Below, piece by piece: positions 7,766 to 28,708 of a stretch of 47,559 nt of DNA (position 1 is the first letter of the stretch; each line of letters opens with the position of its first letter). Under the pieces are notes generated by a model. It did not search any database. It saw only the letters and a list, made by a program, of their open reading frames with translations, and was not told the DNA's origin. The DNA is taken from positions 1 to 47,559 of the IMG/VR virus record IMGVR_UViG_3300038674_000378; one strand, written 5' to 3'. The stretch comes from a virus (taxonomy: Duplodnaviria > Caudoviricetes). A program made the translations under genes and the position numbers.

Positions 7766-8827
7766 ATGGAAAGTGATAAAATTTTGAAATCTTGCCCTGT
7801 TTGTGGAAAGATAAAGAAGAATCTTTCTCTGCATTTTACAAAGGTCGATGATGCAGCCCATGAAAAATTTTTAGAGAGGGTGTATTTTGTTGTTGACCCT
7901 CTTCTTTCAGAAAATTATTTGTTTGAAATTATATCTCTAATAGAGGAACAACACGAGGAGTTTGCTAGTGTTTGTACGGAAAGGTTTCTAGCTCTTAGAA
8001 GAGAAGCCTTGGGTATCTCCGGAAGAAAAGTAGTAGGGAAGAGAAGATTGGGGGAGTGTAACCCCGCCAAAAATACGGAAGTGCGTATAAAAATCTCGGA
8101 CGCAATTAAAGAAATGTGGAAAAGCGGCGATTACTCGGACAGAATAAACGGTATGATGGGTGTGTGTGGTTCCGATCATCCTGGTTGGAAAGATGAAAAG
8201 CATACACCTCTATACTTTGCAGAGAAGAATTACAGAGAATTTTTAGGGCATTTCCAAGATATAACACAGTGCTCTTGCTGTGGTAAGATTTGTGAAACTA
8301 ATGTTCATCACATAGATGAAAACCATGAAAACTTCTTAATTTCGAACTTGGAACCTTTGTGCATTTCTTGCCATGCTGATTTGCATTATGGAAAAAGGAA
8401 AATGCCTTATGTGACTATAGGGAAGTTTTTCCGTTTCGCGGGGGCACATTTTCTTCCCACACATCCCAGACTTTGCAAGCACTGGCACGGCCATGAATGG
8501 CGCATGGAAGTACAGATTATGAAGAGGGTTGACAAGACCACAGGTATGGTTTTGGATTTTTCTGATTTGAAGAAGGCAGTTAAATCCTGCATTGTTGATA
8601 AACTGGACCATAACATGCTAAACGATTTTTTGGTAAACCCCACGGCTGAAAATATTCTTGTGTGGTGCTGGGAACGTTTGATGTTTGATGGTCTTTTAAA
8701 GGGTATAAAGAAAATAACTTTGTGGGAAGCAGAGGATTCCTGGGCCTCTTTGGATGTGGATGGGATGCTTTCTGTTTTCCGCGGCAATATTGAAAATTAT
8801 GTAGAGAAAGAATGGTACGAAGCATGA
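7766..8827 (+). CDS. queD: HNH endonuclease domain fused to 6-carboxytetrahydropterin synthase (QueD)
   Basis: C-terminal FAGAH...CKHWHGHEW...GMVLDFSDLK...LDH...NPTAENI is QueD; the middle CSCC...VHHIDENHEN...NLEPLCISCH is HNH. Confidence 0.85.
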   Translation: MESDKILKSCPVCGKIKKNLSLHFTKVDDAAHEKFLERVYFVVDPLLSENYLFEIISLIEEQHEEFASVCTERFLALRREALGISGRKVVGKRRLGECNPAKNTEVRIKISDAIKEMWKSGDYSDRINGMMGVCGSDHPGWKDEKHTPLYFAEKNYREFLGHFQDITQCSCCGKICETNVHHIDENHENFLISNLEPLCISCHADLHYGKRKMPYVTIGKFFRFAGAHFLPTHPRLCKHWHGHEWRMEVQIMKRVDKTTGMVLDFSDLKKAVKSCIVDKLDHNMLNDFLVNPTAENILVWCWERLMFDGLLKGIKKITLWEAEDSWASLDVDGMLSVFRGNIENYVEKEWYEA

Positions 8828-9081
8828 ACTTCCAAGACTTCGATAGTGCCATAACAAGGGCAAAGGCATACAAGGTTCCGTGTGTCATTTGTAAACTTTT
8901 GAATCCAACCACACCACTGAAAAGGCGGAACCCATTCTTCATAATGAAAATCGAATCCTTTCATTCTGGTATTCTCAAAATGGCGTCTATTGAGGCTTGC
9001 ACGGTTCCTTTGGTGCCCGACGACATTTGTTGCTGGCACTCCACTTCCAAAATACAGACGGATATATTTAGGAGGCGGTAA
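8824..9081 (+). CDS. hypothetical protein
   Basis: ATGA overlap with the queD stop; ends overlapping the next ATG. Confidence 0.45.
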
Positions 9082-9605
9082 TGTGTGAATGCCCTATGTG
9101 TGAAATGGATTATGCTCCCGTAGAAGAAAAAGTTTATGCCGCAATGGGGAGTGGTAAACGTGTTATGATAATCAACAATGAAATGGGTGTGAGGTCTGAA
9201 CGTATGGAAAAAATTCTTATCGGCATGAGCGAAAGGAGGCCGGTGGAATCTGAGAGAAAATACACCGGCTATACGACGTTTGTGCGGCAAGGCCGCAAGA
9301 TAGGCCGCAATGAGCCGTGCCCCTGCGGTAGCGGCCGGAAATTCAAGAAATGTTGCCATCGCAGCGCAGGCTTTACGCTCATTGAAGTGCTGATCATCAT
9401 TGCCATCATAGGCATCCTTGCCGCCATAGCTATACCCGCCTTTATGGGTAAAGGCGGCTACAAGAATGGTGATTATTCCATGGGTATAGGTGGCATTGTC
9501 GAAACTCGTTGCATTGGCGGCTACCAGTTTGCCGTTGGTGCTCGTGGCAATCCCGAACAGATTTTGGATAATAATGGCAAGGGTATTCCTTGCGGGAGCA
9601 AATAG
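9081..9605 (+). CDS. SEC-C motif protein fused to a type IV prepilin-like C-terminal part
   Basis: [18 protein letters not shown] (SEC-C) directly followed by G|[22 protein letters not shown] (class III signal with E+5). Confidence 0.8.
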
Positions 9606-9606
9606 T

Positions 9607-10323
9607 ATGAGTTCTTATGAACTGGGATTTAGTGATGTTTTCACCTCTATCAACGGAGAAGTGTCTCCTTGTAAGCAGGGATCGATAGCCACTTTTCTCC
9701 GCCTGTCTCATGGCTGCAATTTGCAGTGTCCCTGGTGTGACACAATCGGTCACACTGAAAGAAAGTTTCGTTTGCTTGATTTCGAGGAAAACAAAATCGA
9801 AAAGGCCCTAAGTAAGATGAACGAAGGACCTATCGTCAAGAACATCACGATTACTGGTGGTGAACCCATGCTCGCCCATTATCTTATGAAGCAGCCTTTT
9901 GTTCATTTGCTGCGGAGCTTGCATGGCCTGGGTCATTCCATCGCAATAGAGACAAATGGGACATATCGATTGCCCGACGCTTTGCGATCCTTTGTCAAAG
10001 GCTTTGTAGTTGACTACAAATTTTTTCTTTTGGATATGGGGTGGAAAATAGAGAAGGCTTTTGCTGCAAGTAAGGATCTGCGCTCCGAAGATTACGTCAA
10101 ACTTGTCATTGACAAAGAACATCACATAGGACTTGCAAAACAATTTCTGTCATACTATACAAGCCTTGTCGCACCTGAACAACACCCAACATTTGCAGTT
10201 TCCATTATCAACGAAGACGGCAAACATGTTTTGGAACCTATGCGAGTCATCAAAAGCTTCGCTGATGATGGTTATAACATTTTGTTGAATGTTCAGATCC
10301 ACAAATTTCTCAAAGTACCTTAA
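9607..10323 (+). CDS. queE: 7-carboxy-7-deazaguanine synthase (radical SAM, QueE)
   Basis: FTSINGE, FLRL, CNLQCPWCDT, ITGGEP, IETNG, QIHK; lies between queD and folE. Confidence 0.88.
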   Translation: MSSYELGFSDVFTSINGEVSPCKQGSIATFLRLSHGCNLQCPWCDTIGHTERKFRLLDFEENKIEKALSKMNEGPIVKNITITGGEPMLAHYLMKQPFVHLLRSLHGLGHSIAIETNGTYRLPDALRSFVKGFVVDYKFFLLDMGWKIEKAFAASKDLRSEDYVKLVIDKEHHIGLAKQFLSYYTSLVAPEQHPTFAVSIINEDGKHVLEPMRVIKSFADDGYNILLNVQIHKFLKVP

Positions 10324-10386
10324 AAATCGTTTTTACGTCTGTTAAAATCGAACAGAAGAAAACGAAAGAGCCACAAAGGAGGGCTT

Positions 10387-11184
10387 ATGGACGTCAAGGA
10401 ACTCAAAAAGTATTCCAAGGAGCTGAACAAGCACCTGGACGGGGAGATCGGTGAAATTGATCTTACCCTGGGAGAGGAAGAACTTCTGGAAGCTTTCGTC
10501 ACGAAGCTTGCTGAGGTGCAGGATGCCAAACCCGAAGTGATCAAAGACCTGTCCGAAGGTCTGATCGACTTCTACAACGAGATGATCTCGGAAATGTTCT
10601 CCGGTGAAGAAGGAGAAGAGGGCTCGGAAGAAGGCGAAGAAGCCTACGAGGAAGCGCCCGAAGAACCCGAAGAGCAGCCCGCACCGAAGGAAAAGGCCAA
10701 GAAGCCGGGCAAGAAGGAAGAAAAGAAGCCCACCAAGAAGGAAAAGGAGCCGAAGGCTGAGAAGCCGAAGAAGGAAAAGAAAGAAAAGGCTCCGAAGGAA
10801 CCCAAGCCGCCCCGCGAGAAGAAGAGCGGCAAGAAGACCTGGCTGACCGAAGAGCACAAGACGGCCGGTGGTGAAACCCGCCAGCGTTTCGGCAAGGTCA
10901 AGGCTTTCTACAGCCACCACAAGGGTTCCGGCTCCAACTTCGGCAAAGAAGAGCAGCCGAAGGACGCTCTGGGCGCAGTGCTCGGTTCCGGCACGGCACA
11001 GATCAACGAGATCCTGCTGGGCAAGGGCGCTACCATCGCCACCATCGCTGAAAAGCTCGGCACGAAGGAAGGCCGTGTCAAGAACCACATCTACGCGCTG
11101 AAGCGTAGCGGTGTCGAGTTCGAAGTCAAGGACGGCAAGTACAAGGTTTCGAACATTCCTGAAGACTACTACAAGCAGGCGTAG
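10387..11184 (+). CDS. acidic/Lys-rich low-complexity protein with C-terminal winged HTH
   Basis: AAGGAGG SD; E-rich then K/E/P-rich linker; TIATIAEKLGTKEGRVKNHIYALKRSG resembles an HTH; strong C/G third-position bias. Confidence 0.7.
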   Translation: MDVKELKKYSKELNKHLDGEIGEIDLTLGEEELLEAFVTKLAEVQDAKPEVIKDLSEGLIDFYNEMISEMFSGEEGEEGSEEGEEAYEEAPEEPEEQPAPKEKAKKPGKKEEKKPTKKEKEPKAEKPKKEKKEKAPKEPKPPREKKSGKKTWLTEEHKTAGGETRQRFGKVKAFYSHHKGSGSNFGKEEQPKDALGAVLGSGTAQINEILLGKGATIATIAEKLGTKEGRVKNHIYALKRSGVEFEVKDGKYKVSNIPEDYYKQA

Positions 11185-11186
11185 CC

Positions 11187-11777
11187 ATGAACGAAGATTT
11201 GGACAGGGAGAAATTCCTTCGCCAAAGGGAAGTCGAAAACAGGCTTTACGTTGCGCTCAGGGACGGGTTGGGGTTGAACATGGGCGACCCCAACCTGATC
11301 GACACTCCGAAGCGTATTGCCAAGATGTGGTGCCAGGAGTTCTGTAAAAACGTTGGTATCGAATACGAATCTTACTCTGCGTTCCCGAACGATCATGGGT
11401 ATGACGAAATCATCGTATCTGACACCATTGAATTCGTGAGCATGTGCAGTCATCATTTCTTGCCGTTTTACGGTAAAGGCTGGATCGCATACATGCCCGA
11501 TAAAAAACTCGTCGGCCTTAGTAAAATGAGCAGAGTGTTACAGCACTACGCCGCAAGGCCGCAGCTTCAGGAGAATTTGTGCAAGCAGGTTATCGACAAC
11601 TTTGTCGGCCACATCGAACCGAAAGCTTGTATGGTAATTCTGAAAGCAACACACGGCTGCATTGCCTGTCGAGGTGCGAATCAGCCGAATCAGAAAATGA
11701 TCACCTCGGCTGTTTACGGCAAAGCATCTGAACTGTCTTTCAAAACGGAAGTTTTCAATTTGATCAACTTACCTTAG
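11187..11777 (+). CDS. folE: GTP cyclohydrolase I
   Basis: TPKRIAK, SMCSHHFLPFYG, GLSKMSR, RPQLQE, HGCIACRG. Confidence 0.95.
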   Translation: MNEDLDREKFLRQREVENRLYVALRDGLGLNMGDPNLIDTPKRIAKMWCQEFCKNVGIEYESYSAFPNDHGYDEIIVSDTIEFVSMCSHHFLPFYGKGWIAYMPDKKLVGLSKMSRVLQHYAARPQLQENLCKQVIDNFVGHIEPKACMVILKATHGCIACRGANQPNQKMITSAVYGKASELSFKTEVFNLINLP

Positions 11778-11789
11778 GAGGGTAATATC

Positions 11790-12308
11790 ATGGCCAAGGA
11801 AAAAAATAAGAAGGCTGCTGAAGTCGAAGAAACCGCTGTCGAACCGGAAGAGAACACGGCTGTTGCCGAAGACGATCTCGAGGGTGCCGAAGACAACGAG
11901 AACGAAGGGGTTGACGACGCCGATCTGCCCGAGTATATGAAAGTTGGGCGCGACACAGTGGACGACTTGGACGATGCCACGAAGGTCCAGTATCTTGAAG
12001 AACTGACCAAGGCAATGTTCGGGTACTCGGCGGACTTCATGAACCAGGCGGATGCGTTCGGAGCCAGAAACATCCTCATCGGTGCAGGTCGCGCCAGAAA
12101 GGCCGCCGTGATGTTCCGCAAGTGCGTCACTGCCTACAGATTGCTCTCGATCCATGTCGCACGGCTGAAGCGGGCTGAGAAGGCCGAAGCGAAGGAATCG
12201 AAAAGAACCGCAGAAGCGGAAGAAGCCAAGGCAGCGAAGACTCCGAAAAAGGCCGAAGAGAAGGCTCCTGCGGCCAAGCCTGCGGCCAAGAAACCGGCCA
12301 AGAAGTAG
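11790..12308 (+). CDS. protein with acidic N-terminus and histone H1-like K/A/P-rich C-tail
   Basis: AGGAGG SD; tail KAPAAKPAAKKPAKK. Confidence 0.7.
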   Translation: MAKEKNKKAAEVEETAVEPEENTAVAEDDLEGAEDNENEGVDDADLPEYMKVGRDTVDDLDDATKVQYLEELTKAMFGYSADFMNQADAFGARNILIGAGRARKAAVMFRKCVTAYRLLSIHVARLKRAEKAEAKESKRTAEAEEAKAAKTPKKAEEKAPAAKPAAKKPAKK

Positions 12309-12329
12309 ATCGTGGCCGCATAATTCCCG

Positions 12330-12362
12330 AAAGGCAGTTATCGAAAGGTAACTGCCTTTTCC
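12330..12362 (+). terminator. intrinsic terminator
   Basis: AAGGCAGTTA-tcGAAAgg-TAACTGCCTT followed by T-rich sequence. Confidence 0.75.
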
Positions 12363-12377
12363 TTCCATAGGTGCTAT

Positions 12378-12617
12378 ATGAGCTTATTCCCTGACGAGAT
12401 CACAGTGTATGTCATCATGAAGTACGAGGAACAAGTGCCCGGCCTTGCTGTTTCCGTACCTATTGGTGTGTTCAAAGGCAGTAAAGAAAATCTGGACACC
12501 TTCATGAAAAGGCACTACGATGATACCAAAAAGTACCACACTGTTAAAGTGCCCCATTACTGCGAAAAAGGTGAACTGTGTTGTGGTTGTAAGCTTTACG
12601 AAACAAAGGAGGTTTGA
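12378..12617 (+). CDS. hypothetical protein
   Basis: 79-aa ORF with AGGTG SD. Confidence 0.55.
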   Translation: MSLFPDEITVYVIMKYEEQVPGLAVSVPIGVFKGSKENLDTFMKRHYDDTKKYHTVKVPHYCEKGELCCGCKLYETKEV

Positions 12618-12619
12618 AC

Positions 12620-12676
12620 ATGGATAAACACATTATCTACTTTCCCCTTGAGCCGTACAAAGAACGCTATATTTGA
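12620..12676 (+). pseudogene. stranded original 5' end of the glycosyltransferase gene (MDKHIIYFPLEPYKERYI*)
   Basis: Strong AAGGAGG SD; peptide nearly identical to the N-terminus of ORF 13339 (MTKTIIHFPLEPYKERYT). Confidence 0.85.
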
Positions 12677-12724
12677 CACACATAATAAATCATGTCATAA
12701 ATGTGTCAAATATGGAGGCTTGAC

Positions 12725-13342
12725 ATGATTTGCAGAGTACCAGAATGCTACAACAAAGTATATGGTAATCAGGATGTTTGTAATAAACACTATAAGCAAC
12801 TGCTTTACCACGGAAAAATACGGGAAAGAACACAACACACGCTAAATTCTTGGGAAAGAACAGAACAAGGATATCTTTTTTCTTTGTACTTTCGGGGAGG
12901 TGGCGAAAGGCCAGAGAAATTTCTTATCGATCACGAATCTTTTGAAAAAGTTCGGTACCATAAATGGTGTTATCAAGGAAGATACGTCAAAAATAAAAAT
13001 CTGGGGTTGTTACATAGATTTCTTTTGGGTTACCCGGATGATCCCATAGATCACATAAATGGTGATTGTCTGGATTATAGAATCCAAAATTTGCGTATTT
13101 GCAGGCACAAAGATAATATACGGAATTCAAAGTTATCCAAGAACAATAAAACAGGGTTTGTTGGTGTTTGTGTATACCATTATGATAAAATGCGCTACGA
13201 AGCGTACATACATGTAGATAGGAAAAAGATTGGACTTGGAATACATGAAACTGCGGAAGAAGCCGCCAGAGCTTATAATGAAGCGGCGGTAAAGTATTTC
13301 GGAGAATTTGCGAGACTAAACAAGATACCGGAGGAACTATGA
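12725..13342 (+). mobile_element. free-standing HNH-AP2 homing endonuclease
   Basis: LHRFLL...IDHINGDCLDYRIQNLR (HNH) and AP2 domain LGIHETAEEAARAYNEAAVKYFGEFA; GGAGG SD at 12714; AT-rich relative to flanks. Confidence 0.88.
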
Positions 13343-14517
13343 CCAAGACTATTATTCATTTCCCTTTGGAACCGTATAAAGAAAGATACACGGAACAGCT
13401 TTGTGCTGATGAGGGGGGCTGGTTGTCTTCTCGTTGGAGAGAAAACGATATACCTTTCATAAATATTAAAGGTAAAATGCTTCGGGAAGACAGGTCAATA
13501 AAATCCGGGTCTGTTCTTGATGCAAACGGCAGGGGTTACTGGGCAACCACACAAATTGCTGAGTTTTTGAGAAGATATGAGAAAGGAGAATTTGATTACA
13601 ACCACTCTGTTATCTACTTCTCCGACTTCTGGCATCCCGGCATTGAAGCATTGGCCTATACGTTTCACATTACGGGTAAACGTATCCCCATGTACGCTAT
13701 GCTACATGCCCAGTCCGTGGATATTTTCGATTTCACCTATCCTATGCGAAACTGGATGCGTCACTTCGAGAAAGGCATCGGTTCGATCCTCGATGGCATT
13801 TTTGTTACTTCGAAGATTCTCAAGGATCTTTGCCTGGAAGCAGGTGTAGGCAATAACGACAACCTGTTTATTGCTGGCCTGCCGTACAACTCCAAGTGCG
13901 TCATGCTGCAATACTTCCCCGAGAAGCTGCCGGAAAAGAAACGGCAGGTCGTCTTCAGTTCTCGCCTCGACTGGGAAAAGAATCCCTTGTTCTTCTTGCA
14001 GGTGGCTGCTATGGTAAAGGAAATCGATCCTTCTATCAATTTCGTATTCACTACTTCCAGTAGCGAGATTCGTTCGAATGATCCGCAGATCAAAGCCATC
14101 TTCGACTCCGTTGCGCCTTCCCTGGTCGAAGTGCGCAAGAACCAGAGCAAGCAGGACTATTACAATACTCTGCTGGAAAGTACCGTTCAATTTAACTGTG
14201 CCTATCAAGACTTTGTGTCCTGGACTCTTCTGGAAGCTCTCACCTGTCGCTGCAACCCCGTATATCCGTTCTTCCGGTCATTCCCTGAAGTATTGCCCTA
14301 CAACTTCATGTACACGCCTGAGAACGTGGAAGACGCCGCAAGACTGATCCTTCAGAACATGGGTCCGTTCCACGAAGAACTGGTAAACATCGTGCTGGCT
14401 TTCGACAAATCCTGGCAACGTATGTACGACTTCATGAATTCCCATCGCTCTATGCACCACACAATCGCTCCTATGTACGAAGACAGCAGGATGGCCAATC
14501 TGATCAACGCCAAATAA
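13339..14517 (+). CDS. GT-B fold glycosyltransferase (GT4-like), probably DNA-modifying
   Basis: FSSRLDWEKNP, QDFVSWTLLEA, RSFPEVL motifs; inside the deazaguanine cluster. Confidence 0.75.
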   Translation: MTKTIIHFPLEPYKERYTEQLCADEGGWLSSRWRENDIPFINIKGKMLREDRSIKSGSVLDANGRGYWATTQIAEFLRRYEKGEFDYNHSVIYFSDFWHPGIEALAYTFHITGKRIPMYAMLHAQSVDIFDFTYPMRNWMRHFEKGIGSILDGIFVTSKILKDLCLEAGVGNNDNLFIAGLPYNSKCVMLQYFPEKLPEKKRQVVFSSRLDWEKNPLFFLQVAAMVKEIDPSINFVFTTSSSEIRSNDPQIKAIFDSVAPSLVEVRKNQSKQDYYNTLLESTVQFNCAYQDFVSWTLLEALTCRCNPVYPFFRSFPEVLPYNFMYTPENVEDAARLILQNMGPFHEELVNIVLAFDKSWQRMYDFMNSHRSMHHTIAPMYEDSRMANLINAK

Positions 14518-14521
14518 CCAT

Positions 14522-14541
14522 GGGGGCGAAAGCCCCCTTAT
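14522..14541 (+). terminator. GAAA-tetraloop hairpin, possible terminator
   Basis: GGGGGC-GAAA-GCCCCC followed by a short T tract. Confidence 0.5.
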
Positions 14542-14551
14542 GAGGTAACAG

Positions 14552-14755
14552 ATGAAGAGTTTTCTGATCATCGTAGCATCCATTCTGTTTACCTGTGCTA
14601 TGTATAATATCATGTCTGCCAACTACGCCAACCGTGTTGAAGCCCGATATATTCATGTCGTACCTGAAAAAACTAGCAATTCGTGTGTAGTATATAAGAT
14701 GGACGGCACAACTGTGATCGTTATTGACGACAAAGTGGGGAGGAAACTAAAATGA
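14552..14755 (+). CDS. small membrane or secreted protein
   Basis: N-terminal hydrophobic helix; GAGG SD. Confidence 0.55.
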   Translation: MKSFLIIVASILFTCAMYNIMSANYANRVEARYIHVVPEKTSNSCVVYKMDGTTVIVIDDKVGRKLK

Positions 14756-15099
14756 AAAAGTTTCTGATTTCCTTCATTTTGGGTTCTTTGGCTCTTGTAC
14801 CCGTTTATGAGATCGAGGGAGAACAAGTGAAGGTTGGTCCTAATAAGCAGGTTGAAGCGACTATTACTGTTGACAGGAACAATCGTGTTCACGGCTACGT
14901 TGAAGACAGTGATCCTACGAAGTTCTTCCCCGAAAAAAGAAAAGTAAAAGGCGAGTGGAAATCTAATGGTGTCATAGAGGTTAAGGACAAGTATGGATAC
15001 AAGTACAATCTGAAACCTACCGGAAAGAAAATGATTGGTGAAAGGAGAACTTACACGCATGATTACCGTTACCGTAGACAGAGTTCTGAGCACAAGTGA
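14752..15099 (+). CDS. secreted protein with signal peptide
   Basis: MKKFLISFILGSLALVP; GGAGG SD. Confidence 0.55.
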   Translation: MKKFLISFILGSLALVPVYEIEGEQVKVGPNKQVEATITVDRNNRVHGYVEDSDPTKFFPEKRKVKGEWKSNGVIEVKDKYGYKYNLKPTGKKMIGERRTYTHDYRYRRQSSEHK

Positions 15100-15781
15100 T
15101 CGTTTGAAGTTTGAGAAGACAATTCGTGAAATCCTGTGTAATGACTCCTTATACTTCGAGTATGGTTCAGGGGCAACAAAGGAAGTCACAATGGCTTGCC
15201 CCCTTATAGGGTCTGATCTAAATTTTGAAAGCACACCTGTGCGGTTTAACATGCCCGAAAATGGTCCTTTCAATGTCAAGTTTACCCAGCAAGATGCGGC
15301 ACAGTTTGATTTGGTAGTGGAAAATTTCATCAAACGCAAGACAGAGAAAAAGGAGGAAAAGCCTATGAAAACAGCATCGATTCTTCACGTTGCAGTAACG
15401 GTTGCAGGCGCACACAAGTACCCTGAGAGCACCCGAGCCTATTTGAGAGCCCTGCATCGCCACGACTTCAAAATCTCGGTTAACATTGGGGTAACTGATC
15501 TCAATCGCCAGTACGAATTTTACGATGTGCAGGAAGGCTTGATCGCAGCCCTGGACAGTCTGTTCGTGAAAATCGACAAACACACCTACAACTTCGGTAC
15601 TCGTTCGTGTGAACACATCGCCCATGAACTTTTTCCTGTTCTCAGCAAGAAGTATCCCATTGTCACTTCTGTGGCTGTGTTCGAAGATGAGAACAACGGC
15701 GCAACGGTTCTTCTCGATGAACCCATGAGAGAGCTTACCAAGCTGCGTTTCGGGCACGGCGGTGTCGTGTCGGGGTTGTGA
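15059..15781 (+). CDS. QueD-like T-fold protein (DpdL-like putative CDG decarboxylase), in frame with an upstream unknown domain; likely internal start at 15365
   Basis: GAHKYP...LHRHDF...RQYEF...SCEHIA...VFEDENNGA pattern of phage QueD-like paralogs; AAGGAGG before ATG 15365. Confidence 0.65.
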   Translation: MITVTVDRVLSTSDRLKFEKTIREILCNDSLYFEYGSGATKEVTMACPLIGSDLNFESTPVRFNMPENGPFNVKFTQQDAAQFDLVVENFIKRKTEKKEEKPMKTASILHVAVTVAGAHKYPESTRAYLRALHRHDFKISVNIGVTDLNRQYEFYDVQEGLIAALDSLFVKIDKHTYNFGTRSCEHIAHELFPVLSKKYPIVTSVAVFEDENNGATVLLDEPMRELTKLRFGHGGVVSGL

Positions 15782-16049
15782 TATGGAAGAGAAAGATCCT
15801 GAAGTTCCTAGCATCTGTACGAACTGTCAACGGCATTTAAAGGCATGGGCGGAATCTCGCCGCCCTGCCTGGAAAGGATGCAATCTTCTACTTGACGAAC
15901 ACTCCGGTGTTGATGATCCGGAAAAAACAGGTAATGACATTTTCTGCGAAGAAATGGCAATGGGTTGGGTAACAAACGGCGGTATGGCCTTTAACTATCA
16001 AATTCTTAATAAAGGGACTACGAAATGCCGGTACTTCCAGCAGAAGTAA
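15762..16049 (+). CDS. Cys-rich hypothetical protein
   Basis: Fills the gap between the DpdL-like and DpdA-like genes; start may be ATG 15783. Confidence 0.5.
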   Translation: MSCRGCDMEEKDPEVPSICTNCQRHLKAWAESRRPAWKGCNLLLDEHSGVDDPEKTGNDIFCEEMAMGWVTNGGMAFNYQILNKGTTKCRYFQQK

Positions 16050-17011
16050 AGCCTGAATTCTCCTTAATGGTGGACTCAGGGGCTCACGCTATTTTTGAGG
16101 GTTTTGTTCGTTGTGGCACAGGCATCTGGGATAGGCATTTGTGGAATTGGTCCTATTACGGTTCAGAACCTTTTTGGCAGTACGTCGATGATTACGCAGA
16201 ATTTTTAAAGGTGTATAAGGACATCTTTAATGTTTACGTCACCCTCGACGCCATTTACGATCCCAAGACTTCCTACGAAACGTTCATATACCTCAGAGAA
16301 AAGCACGGCTTGAACCCTCTGCCTGTTTTTCATTATGCTGAGAATATCGAGTGGTTGAAGAAATACATGGAAGTCACTGACTACATAGGTATTTCTGGCC
16401 TTGGTCAAGGCATCAACAAAAAGGATTACATTCAGTGGGCTGATCGTGTATTTAGTCTTGTGTGCTCCGGTAAAGATCATCTGCCGAAGTACAAGATTCA
16501 CGGCTTTGCTCTCACTTCCACGGAGCTTATTCACCGTTGGCCGTGGTATAGTGTTGATAGTTCTTCGTGGGTTCAATTCTCCCAATACGGGAAGGTGATC
16601 ATCCCCAAGATGATCGGCAACAAGCGTTCTTACAAGGTAAAACCCTATGAAGTTTTTGTATCCACTCGAAGCCCTGCTATCGGAAAGGACGATGAACACT
16701 TTGAAACTCTTTCAAAGATGGAGCAAGGCTATATCCTCGATTATCTGGCGTCGTTGAATATCGCCTACGGCAAATCTCATTTCAAGATTGTCGATGCGGA
16801 TTACGAGTGTGCAGAGCATGAAAAGCCGTGGGGAAAAGCGGAGAACGGCAAAAAGAAAATAGAAGTCATCGAAGAGTTCGGTGTATCCAATCGCCATGAA
16901 TATCGTGACATGGTAAACTATCAGTTTTACGTGGATTTGGAACGTTCTGTTCCGCCCTGGCCCTGGCCGTGGAAACGTGCAACGAACAGATTCGGTCTTA
17001 TCAAAGCCTAG
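16025..17011 (+). CDS. dpdA: DpdA-like DNA 7-deazaguanine transglycosylase (TGT fold)
   Basis: MVDSGA, YVTLDAI, PLPVFH, YIGISG, KIHGFA, PWYSVDSSSW motifs; clustered with folE/queD/queE. Confidence 0.82.
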   Translation: MPVLPAEVKPEFSLMVDSGAHAIFEGFVRCGTGIWDRHLWNWSYYGSEPFWQYVDDYAEFLKVYKDIFNVYVTLDAIYDPKTSYETFIYLREKHGLNPLPVFHYAENIEWLKKYMEVTDYIGISGLGQGINKKDYIQWADRVFSLVCSGKDHLPKYKIHGFALTSTELIHRWPWYSVDSSSWVQFSQYGKVIIPKMIGNKRSYKVKPYEVFVSTRSPAIGKDDEHFETLSKMEQGYILDYLASLNIAYGKSHFKIVDADYECAEHEKPWGKAENGKKKIEVIEEFGVSNRHEYRDMVNYQFYVDLERSVPPWPWPWKRATNRFGLIKA

Positions 17012-18083: not shown

Positions 18084-18179
18084 GTAAGCTTTCCCTGAAT
18101 GAAATTCGTGTGGTGCAGAATCTCTCGGTTAAGAAGAAGGTTTCTTTCACTCAGGTCCCCGACAAGCCATGAAAGAAAG

Positions 18180-18352
18180 CCTGTCTCAGGGTACTGCTCA
18201 CACTGAGATCGATGGGTTCGATTCCCATCTGCCCCGAATCAAATTGAACTGGATTACTAAGGTTAGTGCCGACGCCCATGCACCGGCGATTAAGGCACGG
18301 CTGATAGTGGTAGAATATCCAGACGCGGGAGCAATAGACCTGACGCTCCCAA
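18180..18352 (+). ncRNA. putative structured RNA with a tRNA T-arm and long bulged hairpin
   Basis: GATGGG-TTCGATT-CCCATC T-arm (18211-29); nested helices CTGGAT/ATCCAG, GTGCC/GGCAC, CGCC/GGCG; GGGAGC/GCTCCC. Confidence 0.5.
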
Positions 18353-18670: not shown

Positions 18671-19420
18671 ATGGGAAAGCTCCATGAACTTTTGGCTGTG
18701 GAAAAAGAAGCCGTCGGTAAGATGAACAAGATTCTCATCGAGGGCAAGGATACGTACAGCAAGCGCACTGATCATTTTTCGGGTTTCGTCAAGACCCTCT
18801 CTGTCTTCAAGGAAGAAGACAAGCATCTGGAAGAAGCTGCTTCGGAACGCAAGGAAATGGTCACGACCGTTCACGACAAGCTGGAATACGTTCTGGGTGC
18901 TGTGCAGGATGTCATCAACATTCGCTTACAGAAGGATTGTGCGAATGCGCAGGCACAGGCCAACATTGTGGTCGATGGCCAGACCCTGGCCACGGATGTT
19001 CCGGCCACCACTCTCCTGGCCCTGGAAGACATCCTGCGGGAACTTCGCATTATGTGTGACATGATCCCTACACTGGAACCCGGCGTCAAGTGGGTTGATG
19101 ATCCGAATATGGGCAAGCATGTGAAGCGTGCTGAGTACCCGGAAAAGACGCTGCGTGCCAAGAAGAAGACCGTGTACGTTGAGGTTGCCAAGGCAACCGA
19201 CAAGCACCCGGCACAGATTCGTGAAGAAACGCAGGATGTGAACATCGGCGTGTACATCACTGAAAAGTTCAGTGGCCGCATTTCACCCGCTGAAAAAGTC
19301 GTTTTGCTTGATAAAATCGAAAAGCTGACGGCAGCAGTCAAGAAAGCGCGTGCCAGGGCCAACGAGGAAGAAGTTCCGAACGTCACCCTGAACGTGATTT
19401 CGCAATATATTTTGTCATAA
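18671..19420 (+). CDS. conserved uncharacterised protein (from memory DUF7873-like), adjacent to the large ncRNA
   Basis: KLHELLAVEK...DVPATTLLALE...KATDKHPAQI...EKFSGRI...AVKKARARAN; AGGAGG SD; high-expression codon bias. Confidence 0.7.
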   Translation: MGKLHELLAVEKEAVGKMNKILIEGKDTYSKRTDHFSGFVKTLSVFKEEDKHLEEAASERKEMVTTVHDKLEYVLGAVQDVINIRLQKDCANAQAQANIVVDGQTLATDVPATTLLALEDILRELRIMCDMIPTLEPGVKWVDDPNMGKHVKRAEYPEKTLRAKKKTVYVEVAKATDKHPAQIREETQDVNIGVYITEKFSGRISPAEKVVLLDKIEKLTAAVKKARARANEEEVPNVTLNVISQYILS

Positions 19421-19453
19421 TTTTTGGCCAACCTTAACTTTAGCCCAACTCAG

Positions 19454-19529
19454 GCTGAGAATGTACGTTCAAATCGTGCCGGGAGCCCCAAATATATGCT
19501 CCCGTCGTCTAAATGGATAGGACATCAGC
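19454..19529 (+). tRNA. permuted tRNA-like domain 1 (Glu-like body; 3' half precedes 5' half)
   Basis: GCTGA-gaat-GTACG TTCAAAT CGTGC-CGGGAGC-C-CCA-aatatat-GCTCCCG-tc-GTCT aaatggata GGAC-a-TCAGC. Confidence 0.8.
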
Positions 19530-19620
19530 GAGGGGCAGTTAGGATGAACCTCATTGTGAACTTACTAGCCAAACAACCTTAACCAAGATGCGAACTGTGG
19601 AGTAAATGTCGTCCCCAATA

Positions 19621-19715
19621 AGCCAAGACGCGGGTTCAAATCCCGTATCCCCCTCCAAGAAGGTGTGGCCCATCACAATTTCCTGGGGGGATTCGTACAG
19701 CGGGAGTATATGGCG
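19621..19715 (+). tRNA. permuted tRNA-like domain 2 (3' half precedes 5' half)
   Basis: aGCCA-agac-GCGGG TTCAAAT CCCGT-ATCCCCC-T-CCA-28-nt linker-GGGGGAT-tc-GTAC agcggga GTAT-a-TGGCg. Confidence 0.78.
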
Positions 19716-19791
19716 TATCATCGTAAAGGATTGCATGTTACAAAGCACTAGCGGAACGCAGGACGCTTAATCGCGCATTGCAAGCAATACT

Positions 19792-19825
19792 AAGGGGGAG
19801 GGCATGGGTAGCTCTTCCCCTTTTC
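19792..19825 (+). terminator. intrinsic terminator closing the ncRNA
   Basis: AAGGGGGAGGGC...GCTCTTCCCCTT followed by TTCATTT. Confidence 0.65.
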
Positions 19826-19844
19826 ATTTCTAAAGGAGGAAATT

Positions 19845-23207: not shown

Positions 23208-23490
23208 CACACACCATTCCAAAGTTCGTGTCTGGTATGAAACCAAGAAACGTCCACCGCTTATGGAAGACTTCGCCAGAGAAGAGGATATAGCCGAAGA
23301 GAAAGCAAGAGGAACTGTTATAGGGTTATCTGTACCTGTAGAGATAGCCTACATCGATACACCGGAAGGATTGTTTCACACAGCAGAGCTTTATATTCCT
23401 TTCGAAGGTAAGATCAAATGGTACATGAGCTATGCTGGTGATCCCAGAAAGGAAGTAGGTGAACCCAAGTACTGGAGGAAAAAGAAGTGA
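23200..23490 (+). CDS. hypothetical protein
   Basis: Fills the gap before the polymerase and overlaps its GTG start. Confidence 0.5.
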   Translation: MTSTHHSKVRVWYETKKRPPLMEDFAREEDIAEEKARGTVIGLSVPVEIAYIDTPEGLFHTAELYIPFEGKIKWYMSYAGDPRKEVGEPKYWRKKK

Positions 23491-26096
23491 GGAAGCTAGG
23501 TTTTGTCGATCCGTACAAATCGAAGTGTCTTGTTTGTGGGCTGAACAAGAAATGCACTAATGGACAGTTCACTGCCGAAGGTTTAGGCAGTGCTGGCATT
23601 ATGGTTGTTTTGGAGTGCCCGACAAATGCCGAAACAGCTTCCGGTCAAGGACTTCAAGGCAAAGTCTATGATTTTCTGTACGAGCAGTTCCGCAAACTAG
23701 GTTTGAATTTTCAAAAAGACTGTGTGCGTGTTCACGCAGTACGTTGCCGCAAGCCCTTCAAGAAAGGTCAGGCCGACTACAAAGAGCAAGAGGTTGTTTC
23801 GTGCTATCCCTACTTGCTTGGCCAGATAGAGAAGCTGAAGCCAAAAGCTATCTTGACGTTCGGTTCTACAGCCCTCAAGGGCATTCTGAGCAAAGAATTC
23901 ACAGACACTTCAATAGGCAGATGGCACGGCTTGCCGTTGCAGTACACGACCGAGAAAGGCCACCGTTGCTGGTTGATGGCTACTTTCAGTCCTAATACCA
24001 GCGCAGAAAACAAAGGCGACGACATTTACAAGCCTGTCATTGAAAAAGAAATCAGAGACTTCGGTAAGTTGTTGAGGAAGCCTTTGCCGCCTGTCAGGCG
24101 TCCCAACGTAATCCACCTGATGAATGACGAGGAAATAACTGAGTATCTGAAAAAGATGCGCAAGGCGTTATTCCTCAGCATAGACTACGAAACCACAGGC
24201 AAGAAGCCTGATCATCCTGACCATCGTATTGCCACAGTAAGCATTACAGCGGTTTACAAACAGATTTCCGATGATCCCTATGATGATGACGATGCAGAAA
24301 CCGTATCGTTCCCCTTGTCGTACAAGGGTGTCTTCGATGAAGATCAGCAGGCAGACATCGCAGAAGCTTTGGTCTACGCCTTGGAAGGCAAGGGTCTTAT
24401 CATAGCTCATAACCATAAGTACGAGCAGCGTTGGACTTCGGCTATATTAGGTTACGATATGCCGAAGAATCGTTCCTATTGTACTATGGTAACTGCGCAC
24501 CTGATGGACGAACGCAAAAAATTCTGTAGCCTCAAGTTCCAGGCTTATGTCCATTTTGGCCTACCTGATTACAGCAAGAGCATTAAACAGTATCTCGAAA
24601 CGCCGGAGGACTCTAGTGGAAATGCTTTCAATAGAGTTGATGAAGCTCCTCTTCCCGAACTTCTTGAATACAATGGTTACGATACTTATTATACATACCT
24701 GCTTTACAAAATCCAGCAACGCTACAGAAGAGAAACTAAACATCTGGATAAAGGCGTACTTGATCTTTTTACTCGTGGTAGTGTGGCACTAGGCCGCGCT
24801 GAAGGTGAAGGGTTTAATACTGTAGAAAACTACTTCAGCGATAATACCAAGAAGATTCGAAAGGAAATTTCGGACCTCAAAGCAGAGCTTCTTGGTATGC
24901 GTGAATCGATCCTATTCAAAAAGAAGATGGGTCGTAACTTTGAGTTCGGCAAAGACGCCGATCTTGATACCATGCTCTACGATATTATCGGCGTGGAGAT
25001 GGATAAGAAGACTGACAGTGGAAACAGAGCGAAAGACGCCGAAGTAATGCTGTCCATGAAGCACCCCTGGCCTACGAAGTACATGGAAATTGCGAAACGT
25101 GAAAAAGTAGAATCCACGTACTTCGGTCAGATTACAAGGGAGACATACGATAATGTCCTTCACACAGTTTACAACCTTCACACCACAAGGACTGGACGAT
25201 CTAGTTCGACAAGTCCTAACTGGCAGAACCTCCCCAAGCGCGATGAGATGGCTAAGAATTATGTCAGAAGAGGAATATGTGCGGCTCCTGGCCAGCACTT
25301 ATTCGAAGCCGATTATGGCTCACTTGAGGTCAGGATCGCAGCCTGCTATACGAAGGACCCGAAGCTCATCAACTACATTCTTGATCCCACAACCGACATG
25401 CACAGGGACTCAGCGTTAGAAATATTCAGTATCAAGGCAAAAGAATTCGCAACCCTTGATAAGAAGTTCGCCAAGATGATACGATTTCATGCAAAGAATG
25501 GCTTTGTTTTCGCAAACTTCTATGGCTCTTCTTTCAAATCATGCGCCAAAACCTTGTGGAAAGTAGCTCCTGATCTTCATGTTACGAAAGACATGACGAT
25601 GATGGATCATCTGAACTATCAAGGTTTTCGTGAGTATGACGAGTATGAAGAGCACATCAAGGATGTTGTTAATAAATTCTGGAAAAAGTTTTCTGTGTTC
25701 AAGAAATGGCAGAATGACAATATGGAGTTCTACAAAAAGAATCTCTATATCGAGAACTACTTAGGTTTTCGTCGTCACGGCCCGCTGACTCGTAACGAGA
25801 TCGGTAACACAGCCATTCAGGGTTCTGCTTTCATGTGTCTGTTATGGTCATTCAATAGGGTTGACGACATTCAGCATGAAGAGGGTTGGGAATCAAAACT
25901 TCGTGGCCAGATTCATGACTCTATTGTCGGTAATGTCACTCCCAAAGAAAAAGATCATGTCCTGAAGACCATCAAGCGCGTGATGGAAGAAGAACTGCGC
26001 AAACAATTCCCGTGGGTAATCGTGCCCATGGTGGCTGAATTCGAAATGGCTCCCCTTGGTGGGACTTGGGCCGACTTGGAGAGCATCGAGGTGTAA
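23487..26096 (+). CDS. polA: family A DNA polymerase with N-terminal uracil-DNA-glycosylase-like domain (SPO1-type) and 3'-5' exonuclease
   Basis: UDG4-like CxxCxLxxxC...VLECP...C...ILTFG; exonuclease IDYETTG, HNHKYE, YNGYD; TGRSSS.PNWQN, motif A ADYGSLEVR, motif B R..AK..F..FYG, motif C QIHDSI. Confidence 0.93.
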   Translation: MRKLGFVDPYKSKCLVCGLNKKCTNGQFTAEGLGSAGIMVVLECPTNAETASGQGLQGKVYDFLYEQFRKLGLNFQKDCVRVHAVRCRKPFKKGQADYKEQEVVSCYPYLLGQIEKLKPKAILTFGSTALKGILSKEFTDTSIGRWHGLPLQYTTEKGHRCWLMATFSPNTSAENKGDDIYKPVIEKEIRDFGKLLRKPLPPVRRPNVIHLMNDEEITEYLKKMRKALFLSIDYETTGKKPDHPDHRIATVSITAVYKQISDDPYDDDDAETVSFPLSYKGVFDEDQQADIAEALVYALEGKGLIIAHNHKYEQRWTSAILGYDMPKNRSYCTMVTAHLMDERKKFCSLKFQAYVHFGLPDYSKSIKQYLETPEDSSGNAFNRVDEAPLPELLEYNGYDTYYTYLLYKIQQRYRRETKHLDKGVLDLFTRGSVALGRAEGEGFNTVENYFSDNTKKIRKEISDLKAELLGMRESILFKKKMGRNFEFGKDADLDTMLYDIIGVEMDKKTDSGNRAKDAEVMLSMKHPWPTKYMEIAKREKVESTYFGQITRETYDNVLHTVYNLHTTRTGRSSSTSPNWQNLPKRDEMAKNYVRRGICAAPGQHLFEADYGSLEVRIAACYTKDPKLINYILDPTTDMHRDSALEIFSIKAKEFATLDKKFAKMIRFHAKNGFVFANFYGSSFKSCAKTLWKVAPDLHVTKDMTMMDHLNYQGFREYDEYEEHIKDVVNKFWKKFSVFKKWQNDNMEFYKKNLYIENYLGFRRHGPLTRNEIGNTAIQGSAFMCLLWSFNRVDDIQHEEGWESKLRGQIHDSIVGNVTPKEKDHVLKTIKRVMEEELRKQFPWVIVPMVAEFEMAPLGGTWADLESIEV

Positions 26097-26171: not shown

Positions 26172-26600
26172 ATGATTTTTCCTATGGAAAGTTTCAGAAA
26201 GAAGCCGTACATTCATGGTGTCACTACCATGGAGGAGTTCTTCGAAGATCAGCATAATAGGCGCAGATTCCTTCGCAAGTACAGCCCTAAGGTATTCCCC
26301 AGGCTGAAAAAATGCAAGAACGAAAGTTGTGAGAATTATCACGACAACAAGGATTCTTACTGTAGTTTCGAGTGTCGTGTGTACTGGGAAACTACCATGC
26401 GTGTACAACGATTCGGAGGAGTTGATGTACTGAACAACAACCGCAGATGCTCTACCTGTTTGTACGGGTACGAACACAAGTCCAAGATTAAGGCTTTCAA
26501 GTACCACTGTGTTGAAGAACTTGCTTCTGAACATGGAATGAAAGAAGTTTTAGTCAACCCTGATCATTGGTGCCACTTTTACAAGGAGAAACATTCATGA
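26172..26600 (+). CDS. Cys-rich hypothetical protein
   Basis: C..C...YCSFEC, CSTC, WCHFY. Confidence 0.5.
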   Translation: MIFPMESFRKKPYIHGVTTMEEFFEDQHNRRRFLRKYSPKVFPRLKKCKNESCENYHDNKDSYCSFECRVYWETTMRVQRFGGVDVLNNNRRCSTCLYGYEHKSKIKAFKYHCVEELASEHGMKEVLVNPDHWCHFYKEKHS

Positions 26601-28708
26601 GCCGTAGTCTTTACAATACCTACAGGCCCGTAAACTTCGATGAAGTTATCGGAAACGAATCCACAGTTCAAAGCCTTCAGAAGATGTTTGAGCGTGAAGA
26701 AGGCATCCCGAATGCTATCCTGCTTCATGGGCCTAGCGGGACAGGCAAAACTACGGTTGCTCGTATCATCAAGAACCTGCTAGAAATAGCTGATCAAGAC
26801 TACAAAGAGCTTGATCTGGCCTCGACTCGTGGTATCGACAACATTCGTGATCTCCGCGAGAAATGCAAGTACAAACCGCTGCGTTCTAAGTACAGAATGT
26901 ACCTTATGGATGAGTGCTTTGCGGCAGGTACCCAGATAGAAACACCTAACGGTGCGAAAGCTATTGAATCGTTTGTAGCGGGTGATTCTGTCTATTCCAG
27001 CAACGGCGTAGATATTGTTACTAACACTTTTGTAAAAGAAATTCCACTGGATAGGCTTATTCGTGTAGAAATGGAGAATGGAAAAACATTGTTCTGTTCT
27101 GATAAACACGAGGTCTTTACAGAAAAAGGATGGAAGAATTCAGAAGATTTGGTAACCGGGGACTTGCTTTTGCCTTTCTGTTGTGATTTAGTGTCAAGCA
27201 CTAATCAAGAAAACAGGGAGAAAAACAATGGCATACACAAAAAATCCACGAATGAAACCCTGCGCTGTTTGCGGAAAACTGATGAGGGCTTATCGCAACG
27301 GGGCAGAAAGAGACTTTTGCAGCCGGAAATGCAGCGACAGAGCAAGAGAGAAGCCGCGGATAATGGTTCCGTGCGGATGGTGCGAGGAGGTCTGTATCGA
27401 GATTGTTCCGGGGAGAAGGGCACAGTCTTACACATGCAGCAAATCCTGTGCAGCCCAATTCAGGGACTTTCTTCTGGAAGGAAAGAAAAACCACACAGAC
27501 GAAGCACGAAAAGTTATGTCGGAAAGTCGGAAAGCCTTCAACAAAACACCGGCAGGATTAAGAGCAGCGAAACTTTCCTCAGAAAGGATGTTACGAAAGA
27601 ACCCGTCCAAAGACCCGCTTGTGGTAGAAAAAATAAAAGAAACGAAAAGGCTGAATGGGACTTTAAATGTTTGGCCGGGAAAACGCGGGGGCAACGGGCA
27701 ATTAACCACACCACAAAAACTGCTGGCAGTAATTCTGGGAAGTTCGTGGGTAACGGAATACAACATATCATTGGGTCCTCGAAAAGATGGGTACCCAACA
27801 AACTACAAGGTGGATATAGCTCATCCGAAGCTAAAAATAGCTGTGGAAGTAGACGGGAACAGCCACAAACACCCGAACAGTATAGAAAAAGATTTGAAGA
27901 AAACAAGGAAACTTCAAGAATTAGGGTGGCGAGTGTTGCGCGTTACGAACGAGGAAATAATGACCAACTCTTTTCAAGCGTTGTCAAAGGTAAAGAAGTT
28001 CGTCAAGGATTCATAAATCTTTATGATCTTGAAGTGAAGTCTATACCGAACTACTTTGCTAATGGTGTATTGGTACACAACTGTCACCAAGTAACAGCAC
28101 AGGCGCAGGAAGCCATGCTGAAATGGCTTGAAGATTGCCCGAAACACGTAATCATCGTATTGGCCACTACAGACCCCCAGAAACTCATAAAAACGATACT
28201 TACCCGTTGCAACAAGTTTCAGTTGAACTTACTCAGCCGCGAAGAAATGCGCGTGCTGATCGAATGGGTGCTTGATAACGAAGACATTCAGTTACCCAAG
28301 AAAGTTGTTTCGGAAATCATCGTCAAATCGGAAGGCAGCCCCCGAAATGCGCTTACGCTCTTGGATAACGTTATTGAGATTGAGGATGAAGATACTGCGC
28401 TGGAAATACTGGCGGGAGACACAGGAGAAGGCTCTAAGGAGACTATTGATCTGTGCCGTCTGCTTATGGATAGCCGTGCAACTTGGAAGCAGTATCAATC
28501 TCTCTTGGCCGCGATAAAGGATGAGCCCGAGACCGTTCGTTATTCTGTTCTCGGGTTCTGCAATTCCGTAGCTCTGAGAGAAAAAGACGAAAAGAAAATC
28601 AAAAGGGCCGTAGCAGTTATGGAATGCTTTTCGAAGAATTACTATGATTCCAAGAAAGCAGGTCTGACGTATAGCTGCTTTGAGGCTTATTACGGTATTG
28701 ACGTATGA
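26597..28708 (+). CDS. dnaX: DNA polymerase III gamma/tau-like clamp loader, intein-containing
   Basis: YRPVNFDEVIG, GPSGTGKTT, Walker B LMDE|CH split by the intein, LATTDPQK, TRC, GSPRNA. Confidence 0.92.
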   Translation: MSRSLYNTYRPVNFDEVIGNESTVQSLQKMFEREEGIPNAILLHGPSGTGKTTVARIIKNLLEIADQDYKELDLASTRGIDNIRDLREKCKYKPLRSKYRMYLMDECFAAGTQIETPNGAKAIESFVAGDSVYSSNGVDIVTNTFVKEIPLDRLIRVEMENGKTLFCSDKHEVFTEKGWKNSEDLVTGDLLLPFCCDLVSSTNQENREKNNGIHKKSTNETLRCLRKTDEGLSQRGRKRLLQPEMQRQSKREAADNGSVRMVRGGLYRDCSGEKGTVLHMQQILCSPIQGLSSGRKEKPHRRSTKSYVGKSESLQQNTGRIKSSETFLRKDVTKEPVQRPACGRKNKRNEKAEWDFKCLAGKTRGQRAINHTTKTAGSNSGKFVGNGIQHIIGSSKRWVPNKLQGGYSSSEAKNSCGSRREQPQTPEQYRKRFEENKETSRIRVASVARYERGNNDQLFSSVVKGKEVRQGFINLYDLEVKSIPNYFANGVLVHNCHQVTAQAQEAMLKWLEDCPKHVIIVLATTDPQKLIKTILTRCNKFQLNLLSREEMRVLIEWVLDNEDIQLPKKVVSEIIVKSEGSPRNALTLLDNVIEIEDEDTALEILAGDTGEGSKETIDLCRLLMDSRATWKQYQSLLAAIKDEPETVRYSVLGFCNSVALREKDEKKIKRAVAVMECFSKNYYDSKKAGLTYSCFEAYYGIDV
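26915..28081 (+). mobile_element. intein (389 aa) inserted in the DnaX Walker B motif
   Basis: Begins CFAAGTQIETPNG; block B CSDKHEV; ends YDLEV...NYFANGVLVHN followed by Cys+1. Confidence 0.93.
27228..28016 (+). CDS. Vsr/DUF559-type PD-(D/E)xK endonuclease nested in the +1 frame inside the intein
   Basis: Own GGAG SD; Zn-finger repeats CAVC/FCSRKC/CGWC/TCSKSC; YKVDIA...AVEVDGNSH...D..K...LQELGWRVLRVTNEEI. Confidence 0.88.
   Translation: MAYTKNPRMKPCAVCGKLMRAYRNGAERDFCSRKCSDRAREKPRIMVPCGWCEEVCIEIVPGRRAQSYTCSKSCAAQFRDFLLEGKKNHTDEARKVMSESRKAFNKTPAGLRAAKLSSERMLRKNPSKDPLVVEKIKETKRLNGTLNVWPGKRGGNGQLTTPQKLLAVILGSSWVTEYNISLGPRKDGYPTNYKVDIAHPKLKIAVEVDGNSHKHPNSIEKDLKKTRKLQELGWRVLRVTNEEIMTNSFQALSKVKKFVKDS

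Follow-up and report, generated by a model that had tools for sequence, protein, structure and literature searches.

Several RNAs with a permuted tRNA-like organisation have been described. The closest is YrlA, which is present in bacteria and phages and is encoded beside its Ro60/Rsr protein. It carries a permuted tRNA-like domain that consists of a T-arm, an acceptor stem and a D-arm, has no anticodon loop, and is joined to the rest of the RNA through the anticodon stem (PMC4201824; 10.1101/312249). In M. smegmatis the YrlA acceptor stem has 7 bp, and the RNA is cut by RNase P and receives a CCA (PMC4201824). YrlA has been proposed to derive from tandem tRNAs (10.1101/312249). In the two-piece tmRNA (RF04321), a 3' half, CCA, intervening sequence and 5' half follow each other in this order, and the pieces are cut by tRNA-processing enzymes and held together by base pairing (PMC11915505). 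In the permuted tRNA genes of algae and an archaeon, the 3' half is encoded before the 5' half (PMC3978253). The general role of T-boxes, which are relevant to the contact described below, has been outlined (PMC10424219). Each of these sources is drawn on in part.

The window, the whole stretch of DNA that was analysed (47,559 nucleotides), is a phage record that is 53% complete. Profile annotation of its genes indicated a DNA polymerase A, helicases and queuosine-pathway genes. A structured RNA with two permuted tRNA-like domains is predicted directly 3' of a gene for a DUF7873 protein. The features of this locus are the following.

18671 to 19420, + strand: DUF7873 (PF25283) gene, 249 aa (Pfam E 2.8e-64); likely protein partner of the RNA
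19421 to 19830, + strand: whole noncoding RNA, ends predicted from sequence and family comparison; begins at the DUF7873 stop codon
19423 to 19573, + strand: closing stem P1 (19423-28 with 19568-73) around array A, domain 1 and array B; from a constrained fold, with equivalents in relatives
19430 to 19453, + strand: array A, purine-N-N-N-U-N, two clean units and then degenerate, partly paired in the predicted fold
19454 to 19529, + strand: domain 1, permuted tRNA-like, optional in the family; 3' half 19454-90 ending in C-CCA (GCTGA 19454-58, T-arm 19463-79, CGGGAGC 19480-86, C-CCA 19487-90), 7-nt linker 19491-97, 5' half 19498-529 (GCTCCCG 19498-504, D-stem 19507-10/19520-23, TCAGC 19525-29)
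19541 to 19582, + strand: array B (19541-64, four units) and an extra unit (19575-82), from the sequence
19577 to 19729, + strand: long interrupted arm (19577-91 with 19715-29) bearing domain 2; covarying equivalents in 29 relatives
19622 to 19714, + strand: domain 2, permuted tRNA-like, the family core; 3' half 19622-57 ending in U-CCA (GCCA 19622-25, T-arm 19630-46, ATCCCCC 19647-53, T-CCA 19654-57), 28-nt linker 19658-85, 5' half 19686-714 (GGGGGAT 19686-92, TGGC 19711-14)
19792 to 19830, + strand: 3' hairpin (12 bp) and U-run; loop 19804-10, with GG at 19806-07 and G19808

The two domains had been described in a first-pass annotation, and every coordinate given there agrees with the sequence. 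Seven T-arm-like sites are found on the two strands of the window. Only two of them, those of domains 1 and 2, have both a 7-bp downstream acceptor partner and a CCA. The acceptor of domain 1 contains U3-A70 and the discriminator C73, and that of domain 2 contains G3-C70 and U73. The annotation had also expected standard scanners to overlook this large RNA. This is the case: ARAGORN called no tRNA or tmRNA in the window and Rfam at gathering score matched no family there, the sole E-value match being an 18-nt T-arm against tmRNA (12.3 bits, cut-off 47). Once the halves were re-joined in silico, as had been suggested, ARAGORN accepted both window domains as tRNA. The same held for 214/216 family domains with their halves swapped back; in both cases 35 junctions were tried per domain, without a shuffled control. 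The folding energy of the whole RNA is ordinary (z -0.94), so the case for the RNA rests on comparative evidence.

Searching viral and genome contigs with a single DUF7873 protein gave no matches, and relatives were instead retrieved with an alignment query. We fetched 252 DUF7873 loci from cultured phages, plasmid records, viral contigs, genomes and metagenomes. For counting, 198 distinct loci with at least 600 nt downstream were kept, and 54 were dropped as duplicates or because they had no stop codon or less than 600 nt downstream. With a pattern scan, a permuted domain was detected 3' of the gene in 166 of the 198 loci, compared to 0/198 in antisense, 0/198 in shuffled and 3/191 in upstream controls. 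As the first-pass annotation had proposed, a covariance model was built from the downstream sequences of relatives (31 mostly actinobacterial RNAs). The model, built from other genomes, matches both window domains, domain 2 at E 1.4e-5, and it recovers 23 of the 32 loci missed by the pattern. The domain is thus present downstream of the gene in 189/198 loci, which supports the proposed link between the RNA and the upstream gene. Cultured carriers include phages of Rhizobium, Klebsiella, Vibrio, Ralstonia, Gordonia and Arthrobacter, and cyanophages.

Gene and RNA also occur together in bacteria. Among 141 sampled Streptomyces genomes, the gene is found in 75, the RNA in 75 and both in 74. In the single genome counted for the gene only, a divergent RNA follows the gene, and the RNA in the RNA-only genome, the sole case of the RNA alone, is a partial remnant. 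In a phylum-wide sample the gene is rare (3/151). Across loci, no third conserved gene was found within 2.5 kb of the cassette; a tRNA gene lies within this distance in 46/81 viral loci. Neighbouring elements are co-inherited anyway, and co-occurrence alone therefore does not prove a complex. Nine Streptomyces first domains overlap weak ARAGORN tRNA calls. In Streptomyces loci L135, L140, L141, L149 and others, ARAGORN reports a spurious tRNA-Leu, tRNA-Phe or undetermined tRNA over array A and the domain 1 T-arm, and annotations may conceal Streptomyces copies under such labels.

A reverse scan for the bare domain, covering 6 of 64 parts of the viral collection, gave 123 matches in 122 loci. 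Five of them are stand-alone permuted domains: two behind DUF7873, one beside Ro60, one beside DUF2828/DUF7788 and one with too little flanking sequence. The bare domain is thus also found beside other genes and is not specific to DUF7873. In viral contig L261, which lacks DUF7873, a DUF2828/DUF7788 (vWA) gene is followed by two permuted tRNA-like domains (1997-2057 and 2445-2502), of which one or both have CCA. The arrangement may represent a Y-RNA-like system whose partner is a distant Ro60-like protein.

Alignment of 29 RNAs revealed compensatory change in 52 of 68 predicted pairs. The covarying helices are both T-stems, both acceptor stems, the second D-stem and the three-helix arm bearing domain 2. 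The first-pass annotation had described two domains of one layout. The comparison indicated that domain 2 is the core and domain 1 is optional, one domain being found in 116 and two in 50 of the 166 pattern-scan RNAs. Domain 1 forms the tip of a hairpin arm and is absent from several Streptomyces copies. In a close relative of the window phage, other sequence takes its place, with the joint at 19446-19533. CCA is encoded in 71/81 viral, 29/40 metagenomic and 11/86 cellular domains. Both CCAs are encoded in just 6 of the 50 two-domain RNAs, which makes the window RNA an unusually complete example. Two free CCA ends, as had been envisaged, are hence not the family rule, and the core end is likely clamped.

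A third module is found in a subset of the family. Among 102 RNAs with a clear 3' hairpin, 21 have a normal-order tRNA element with an anticodon just 5' of the hairpin, and CCA is encoded in none of these elements. Loci with such an element between domain 2 and the hairpin include L039, L047, L051, L055, L120, L200 and L203. The embedded element, with an anticodon and no CCA, complements the CCA head, which has no anticodon.

The leaders of the RNAs contain arrays of purine-N-N-N-U-N units with a 6-base period (z 18.9 at lag 6, 20.3 at lag 12 and 8.6 at lag 18). At least three units are present in 132/166 leaders, compared to 20 after shuffling, and four units are commonest. The sequence AACTCAG, which had been read as a Glu-anticodon remnant, is a unit of such an array, and its CTC can pair with GAG at 19530-32. 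The array frame relative to the gene is evenly distributed (45/44/43), and the arrays tolerate insertions of 1-2 bases, which indicates that they are non-coding. Both a coding role of the arrays and read-through of the stop codon were rejected.

The acceptor identity of the domains is variable. Among 207 domains there are 142 different 5' strands, and all four discriminators are used. Such free variation argues against a specific synthetase or tmRNA role, and the synthetase sponge that had been suggested is unlikely.

The unit ends in a hairpin and a U-run, as expected from the terminator of the first-pass annotation. However, the hairpin is more than a terminator. Its loop is conserved across the family as GG-N-U/A-A and covaries with the discriminator of domain 2. 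In 70/117 RNAs, the loop base that follows GG can form a Watson-Crick pair with base 73 of the last domain (mean 31.6 and at most 48 in 10,000 shuffles); the count is 29/50 when proteins are collapsed at 60% identity (mean 13.5, maximum 26). In the controls, base 73 of domain 1 pairs in 3/36 and positions 70-72 in 24-42/117. The loop definition was tightened after this first count, in which some stem Gs had counted as loop. With the tightened definition, the pair is Watson-Crick in 83/113 RNAs and Watson-Crick or G-U in 105/113 (shuffles at most 67), and G73 meets a loop C in 47/48. The loop base facing A76 is U in only 29/113 RNAs, which suggests that A76 is left unpaired; it is A in 51/64 CCA-encoding RNAs.

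These data indicate that the N73-C74-C75 end of domain 2 is very probably held by the RNA's own 3' hairpin loop, with A76 free. In the window, the predicted contact consists of G19806-C19656, G19807-C19655 and G19808 with U19654, which are C75, C74 and U73 of domain 2. The window N73 pair is a G-U wobble, and the loop could pair at least equally well with C73 of domain 1. In cellular genomes, where CCA is encoded in few domains and the loops are 5-6 nt, the contact could be a loop-loop pairing in unprocessed RNA.

Elements of the GG-N type pair with the N73-C-C end of tRNA in the T-box antiterminator, the ribosomal P-loop and the RCC-binding loop of RNase P. T-boxes use a fourth pair to A76. 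Unlike in these systems, here the clamp and the tRNA shape are located in one RNA gene, N73 is free to vary with compensation, and A76 is mostly unpaired.

Compared to known RNAs with permuted domains, the DUF7873-linked RNA is closest to YrlA. Algal permuted tRNAs and two-piece tmRNA had been named as precedents, but bacterial and phage YrlA is closer and has the same topology: the window and family domains share its permuted order and its lack of an anticodon loop. The differences are considerable. The partner is DUF7873 and not Ro60, and the RNA, about 350-450 nt, has 6-base arrays and up to two domains. CCA is usually encoded in phages, and the hairpin loop covaries with the discriminator. 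The clamp and the arrays have no counterpart among the YrlA features reported in the parts of PMC4201824 and 10.1101/312249 drawn on here.

No TROVE (Ro60/Rsr) gene was found in the window record, which is incomplete. Ro60 is present in 1/9 cultured phage records and 12/25 bacterial genomes and is not among the conserved neighbours. The Ro-binding motif GNCGAAN0-1G, as given in part of PMC4201824, is absent in the window RNA and is found in 29/166 RNAs, compared to 35 after shuffling. Rfam Y RNA models matched neither the window nor 16 DUF7873 loci; a Ro60-adjacent control (L322) was equally unmatched, and the model is insensitive. With no adjacent Ro60 and no Ro motif, the DUF7873-linked RNA fails to qualify as a Y RNA. 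At locus L322 itself, a phage Ro60 gene is preceded by two permuted domains (1728-2130, minus strand), which Rfam does not call at gathering score.

The two-piece tmRNA resembles the window RNA in its permuted acceptor with CCA and intervening sequence. The alanine identity of tmRNA consists of G3:U70 and A73. This identity is absent in the window, and G3:U70 is found in 9/216 family domains, together with A73 in 2. Neither a conserved tag reading frame nor a match to the tmRNA or tmRNA_permuted models was found. These differences, together with the presence of two domains, indicate that the RNA fails to qualify as a tmRNA. Permuted decoding tRNAs differ from it as well. They mature into decoding tRNAs, whereas here the anticodon stem runs into long scaffold helices and has no anticodon loop.

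The AlphaFold2 model of the DUF7873 protein (pLDDT 91.6) has an elongated shape, with long helices and a long β-hairpin formed by residues 158-197. The tip of the hairpin has a conserved T-x-x-H-P-A-Q motif, and the invariant polar residues of DUF7873 include H5, N92, H179, K209, K224 and N231. A structure search of the PDB and a viral library gave no match at E <= 0.001, the best being generic helical hairpins (Z 7.9), and the model matched no Ro60 structure. Searches of PDB sequences, NCBIfam, PHROGs and Atlas revealed nothing beyond DUF7873. A longer fused form of the protein was not found, although this is weak evidence. In the open-access literature, neither the name 'DUF7873' nor a description of this RNA was found; one under another name may exist.

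In shape, the broadest weak resemblance is to the DUF6847 protein 3kdq (Z 7.4 and rmsd 7.9 over 141 aligned residues). Profile comparison of DUF7873 and DUF6847, whole and in parts, gave a probability under 1% (hhalign 0.2%). In loci L377, L378 and L380, the DUF6847 gene is directly followed by conserved sequence that contains repeats. The three share a terminal hairpin loop, two of them have a T-arm, and Rfam gave no match on these sequences. DUF6847/DIP1984 thus resembles the DUF7873 cassette in that a helical protein of unknown function is followed by a structured repeat-bearing RNA, but it has no profile similarity to DUF7873. DUF6847 and its downstream sequence are a possible sister system.

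None of the runs containing the stretch is on record as RNA. Four runs were compared as assembled contigs, which cannot fix RNA ends or levels. In run X5, labelled RNA-Seq yet with a library type predicted as 'probably DNA', the depth is 9009 in the bin 19515-19715 compared to 0-23 in other bins. The depth at 19583, a position that is not in the tRNA-like part, is 11,318, and contigs terminate in adapter sequence at 19652, 19653 and 19657. Run X3, from a different study, has no clear peak (104, with neighbours at 35 and 63 and 136 elsewhere), and the DNA runs X9 and X2 are near flat. Run X5, the single run concerned, weakly hints at an abundant RNA piece ending at the domain 2 CCA. The abundant molecule may derive from a one-domain relative.

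Taken together, comparison across the family indicates that a DUF7873 gene and a structured RNA form a conserved cassette, and that the RNA has a core permuted domain and an optional further one. The protein and the RNA probably form an RNA-protein particle. We suggest more tentatively that the particle may display the surfaces of tRNA and act as a bait or decoy for enzymes that handle tRNA, during infection or stress; this is the least supported step, and slightly less than an even chance would be our estimate. The RNA would be made together with the DUF7873 message. Host RNase P and 3'-end enzymes would open the acceptor loops, as in M. smegmatis YrlA; the RNase P-type processing put forward earlier is likely. 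The arrays would be occupied by DUF7873 copies, at roughly one for every six bases, and the N73-C74-C75 end of domain 2 would dock on the GG-N loop with A76 unpaired. Once docked, the end would be protected from synthetases and trimming nucleases, and the pieces would stay joined in a stable particle that exposes tRNA elbows. Variation in the displayed tRNA surface would come from the optional modules, which are a second CCA head or the normal-order anticodon element without CCA (21 RNAs). Nothing among the tests run points to a specific target enzyme, and no significant fold or family match suggests an activity of DUF7873.

For the DUF7873 partner, the 6-base arrays and an RNA that pairs its own NCC end, no precedent was found; the tRNA-like domain alone is known from YrlA. 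A widespread structured RNA with a likely dedicated protein partner is thus uncatalogued, despite its presence in cultured phages and about half of the sampled Streptomyces genomes. tRNA mimicry is central to phage-host conflict, and the self-clamped CCA end resembles the grip of the ribosome and RNase P on tRNA. Either a decoy or a transfer function, if true, would be new biology.

A transfer function would require a catalytic particle, in which the GG-N loop acts in a P-loop- or RNase P-like manner and presents A76, possibly in aminoacylated form, so that the RNA or DUF7873 could transfer an amino acid or a peptide. The pairing of positions 73-75 with A76 free, faced by A in most CCA-encoding RNAs, and the invariant polar residues of DUF7873 are consistent with it. 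However, there is no fixed amino-acid identity, no catalytic fold was found, and the clamped end must open for charging. We consider this reading unlikely. Equally unlikely is its extended form, a machine that holds a charged CCA end through the P-loop-like hairpin for non-ribosomal amino-acid transfer, with DUF7873 polymerised on the arrays and possibly a superfamily that includes DUF6847.

The RNA could also be a cis-acting 3' element of the DUF7873 message, with a role in stability or autoregulation, and the clamp a T-box-like sensor of the end status. It begins at the stop codon, no consensus promoter was found between gene and RNA in the window, and the RNA without the gene was met once only, as a remnant. 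However, another gene or several hundred bases separate the DUF7873 gene from the domain in L014, L015, L021, L026 and L091, and the T-box-type fourth pair to A76 is not conserved. The depth of the RNA region in run X5, far above that of the coding region, is weak evidence in the same direction. A cis-acting role is improbable in our assessment.

Another doubtful reading is a Ro60-independent analogue of Y RNA, which would use the tRNA elbow to attach a host nuclease or another effector to DUF7873. It would explain the YrlA-like permuted topology, as described in parts of 10.1101/312249 and PMC4201824, and the protein gene adjoining the RNA. But the elongated DUF7873 model is unlike any Ro60 structure, no conserved effector gene is located nearby, and the clamp and arrays lack a counterpart in the YrlA features reported in those parts.

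The reading as a two-piece tmRNA-like RNA, with an alternating peptide tag encoded by the arrays, is very improbable and largely refuted. The order of 3' half, CCA, linker and 5' half fits such an RNA, the arrays can be read as alternating polar and hydrophobic codons, and the window has a short open frame from 19544. Against this, the tmRNA models gave no match, G3:U70 and A73 are rare, and the arrays have a random frame with insertions of 1-2 bases, and their triplets are AAG/AAA/AGG/AGA even where the genome is high in GC.

Decayed tandem tRNA genes or chance structure, suggested by the frequent location of phage copies within tRNA arrays and by the tandem-tRNA origin proposed for YrlA (10.1101/312249, in part), are refuted, as the first-pass annotation had argued: the permuted acceptor strands covary in phages and many bacterial groups, the antisense and shuffled controls are empty, and the compensatory pairs and clamp covariation are incompatible with decay.

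Several other features of the window were noted. At 18176-18265, inside a doubtful ORF, a further perfect T-arm (18212-18228) follows a hairpin and is kept in relatives with different flanks. It has no Rfam or ARAGORN match and is possibly another small RNA. At 7766-17011, QueD-, QueE-, FolE- and TGT/DpdA-like genes and a glycosyltransferase likely form a 7-deazaguanine DNA-modification pathway. The DNA polymerase A (23487-26096) has an N-terminal uracil-DNA-glycosylase-like domain, and the clamp-loader gene (26567-28708) contains an intein.
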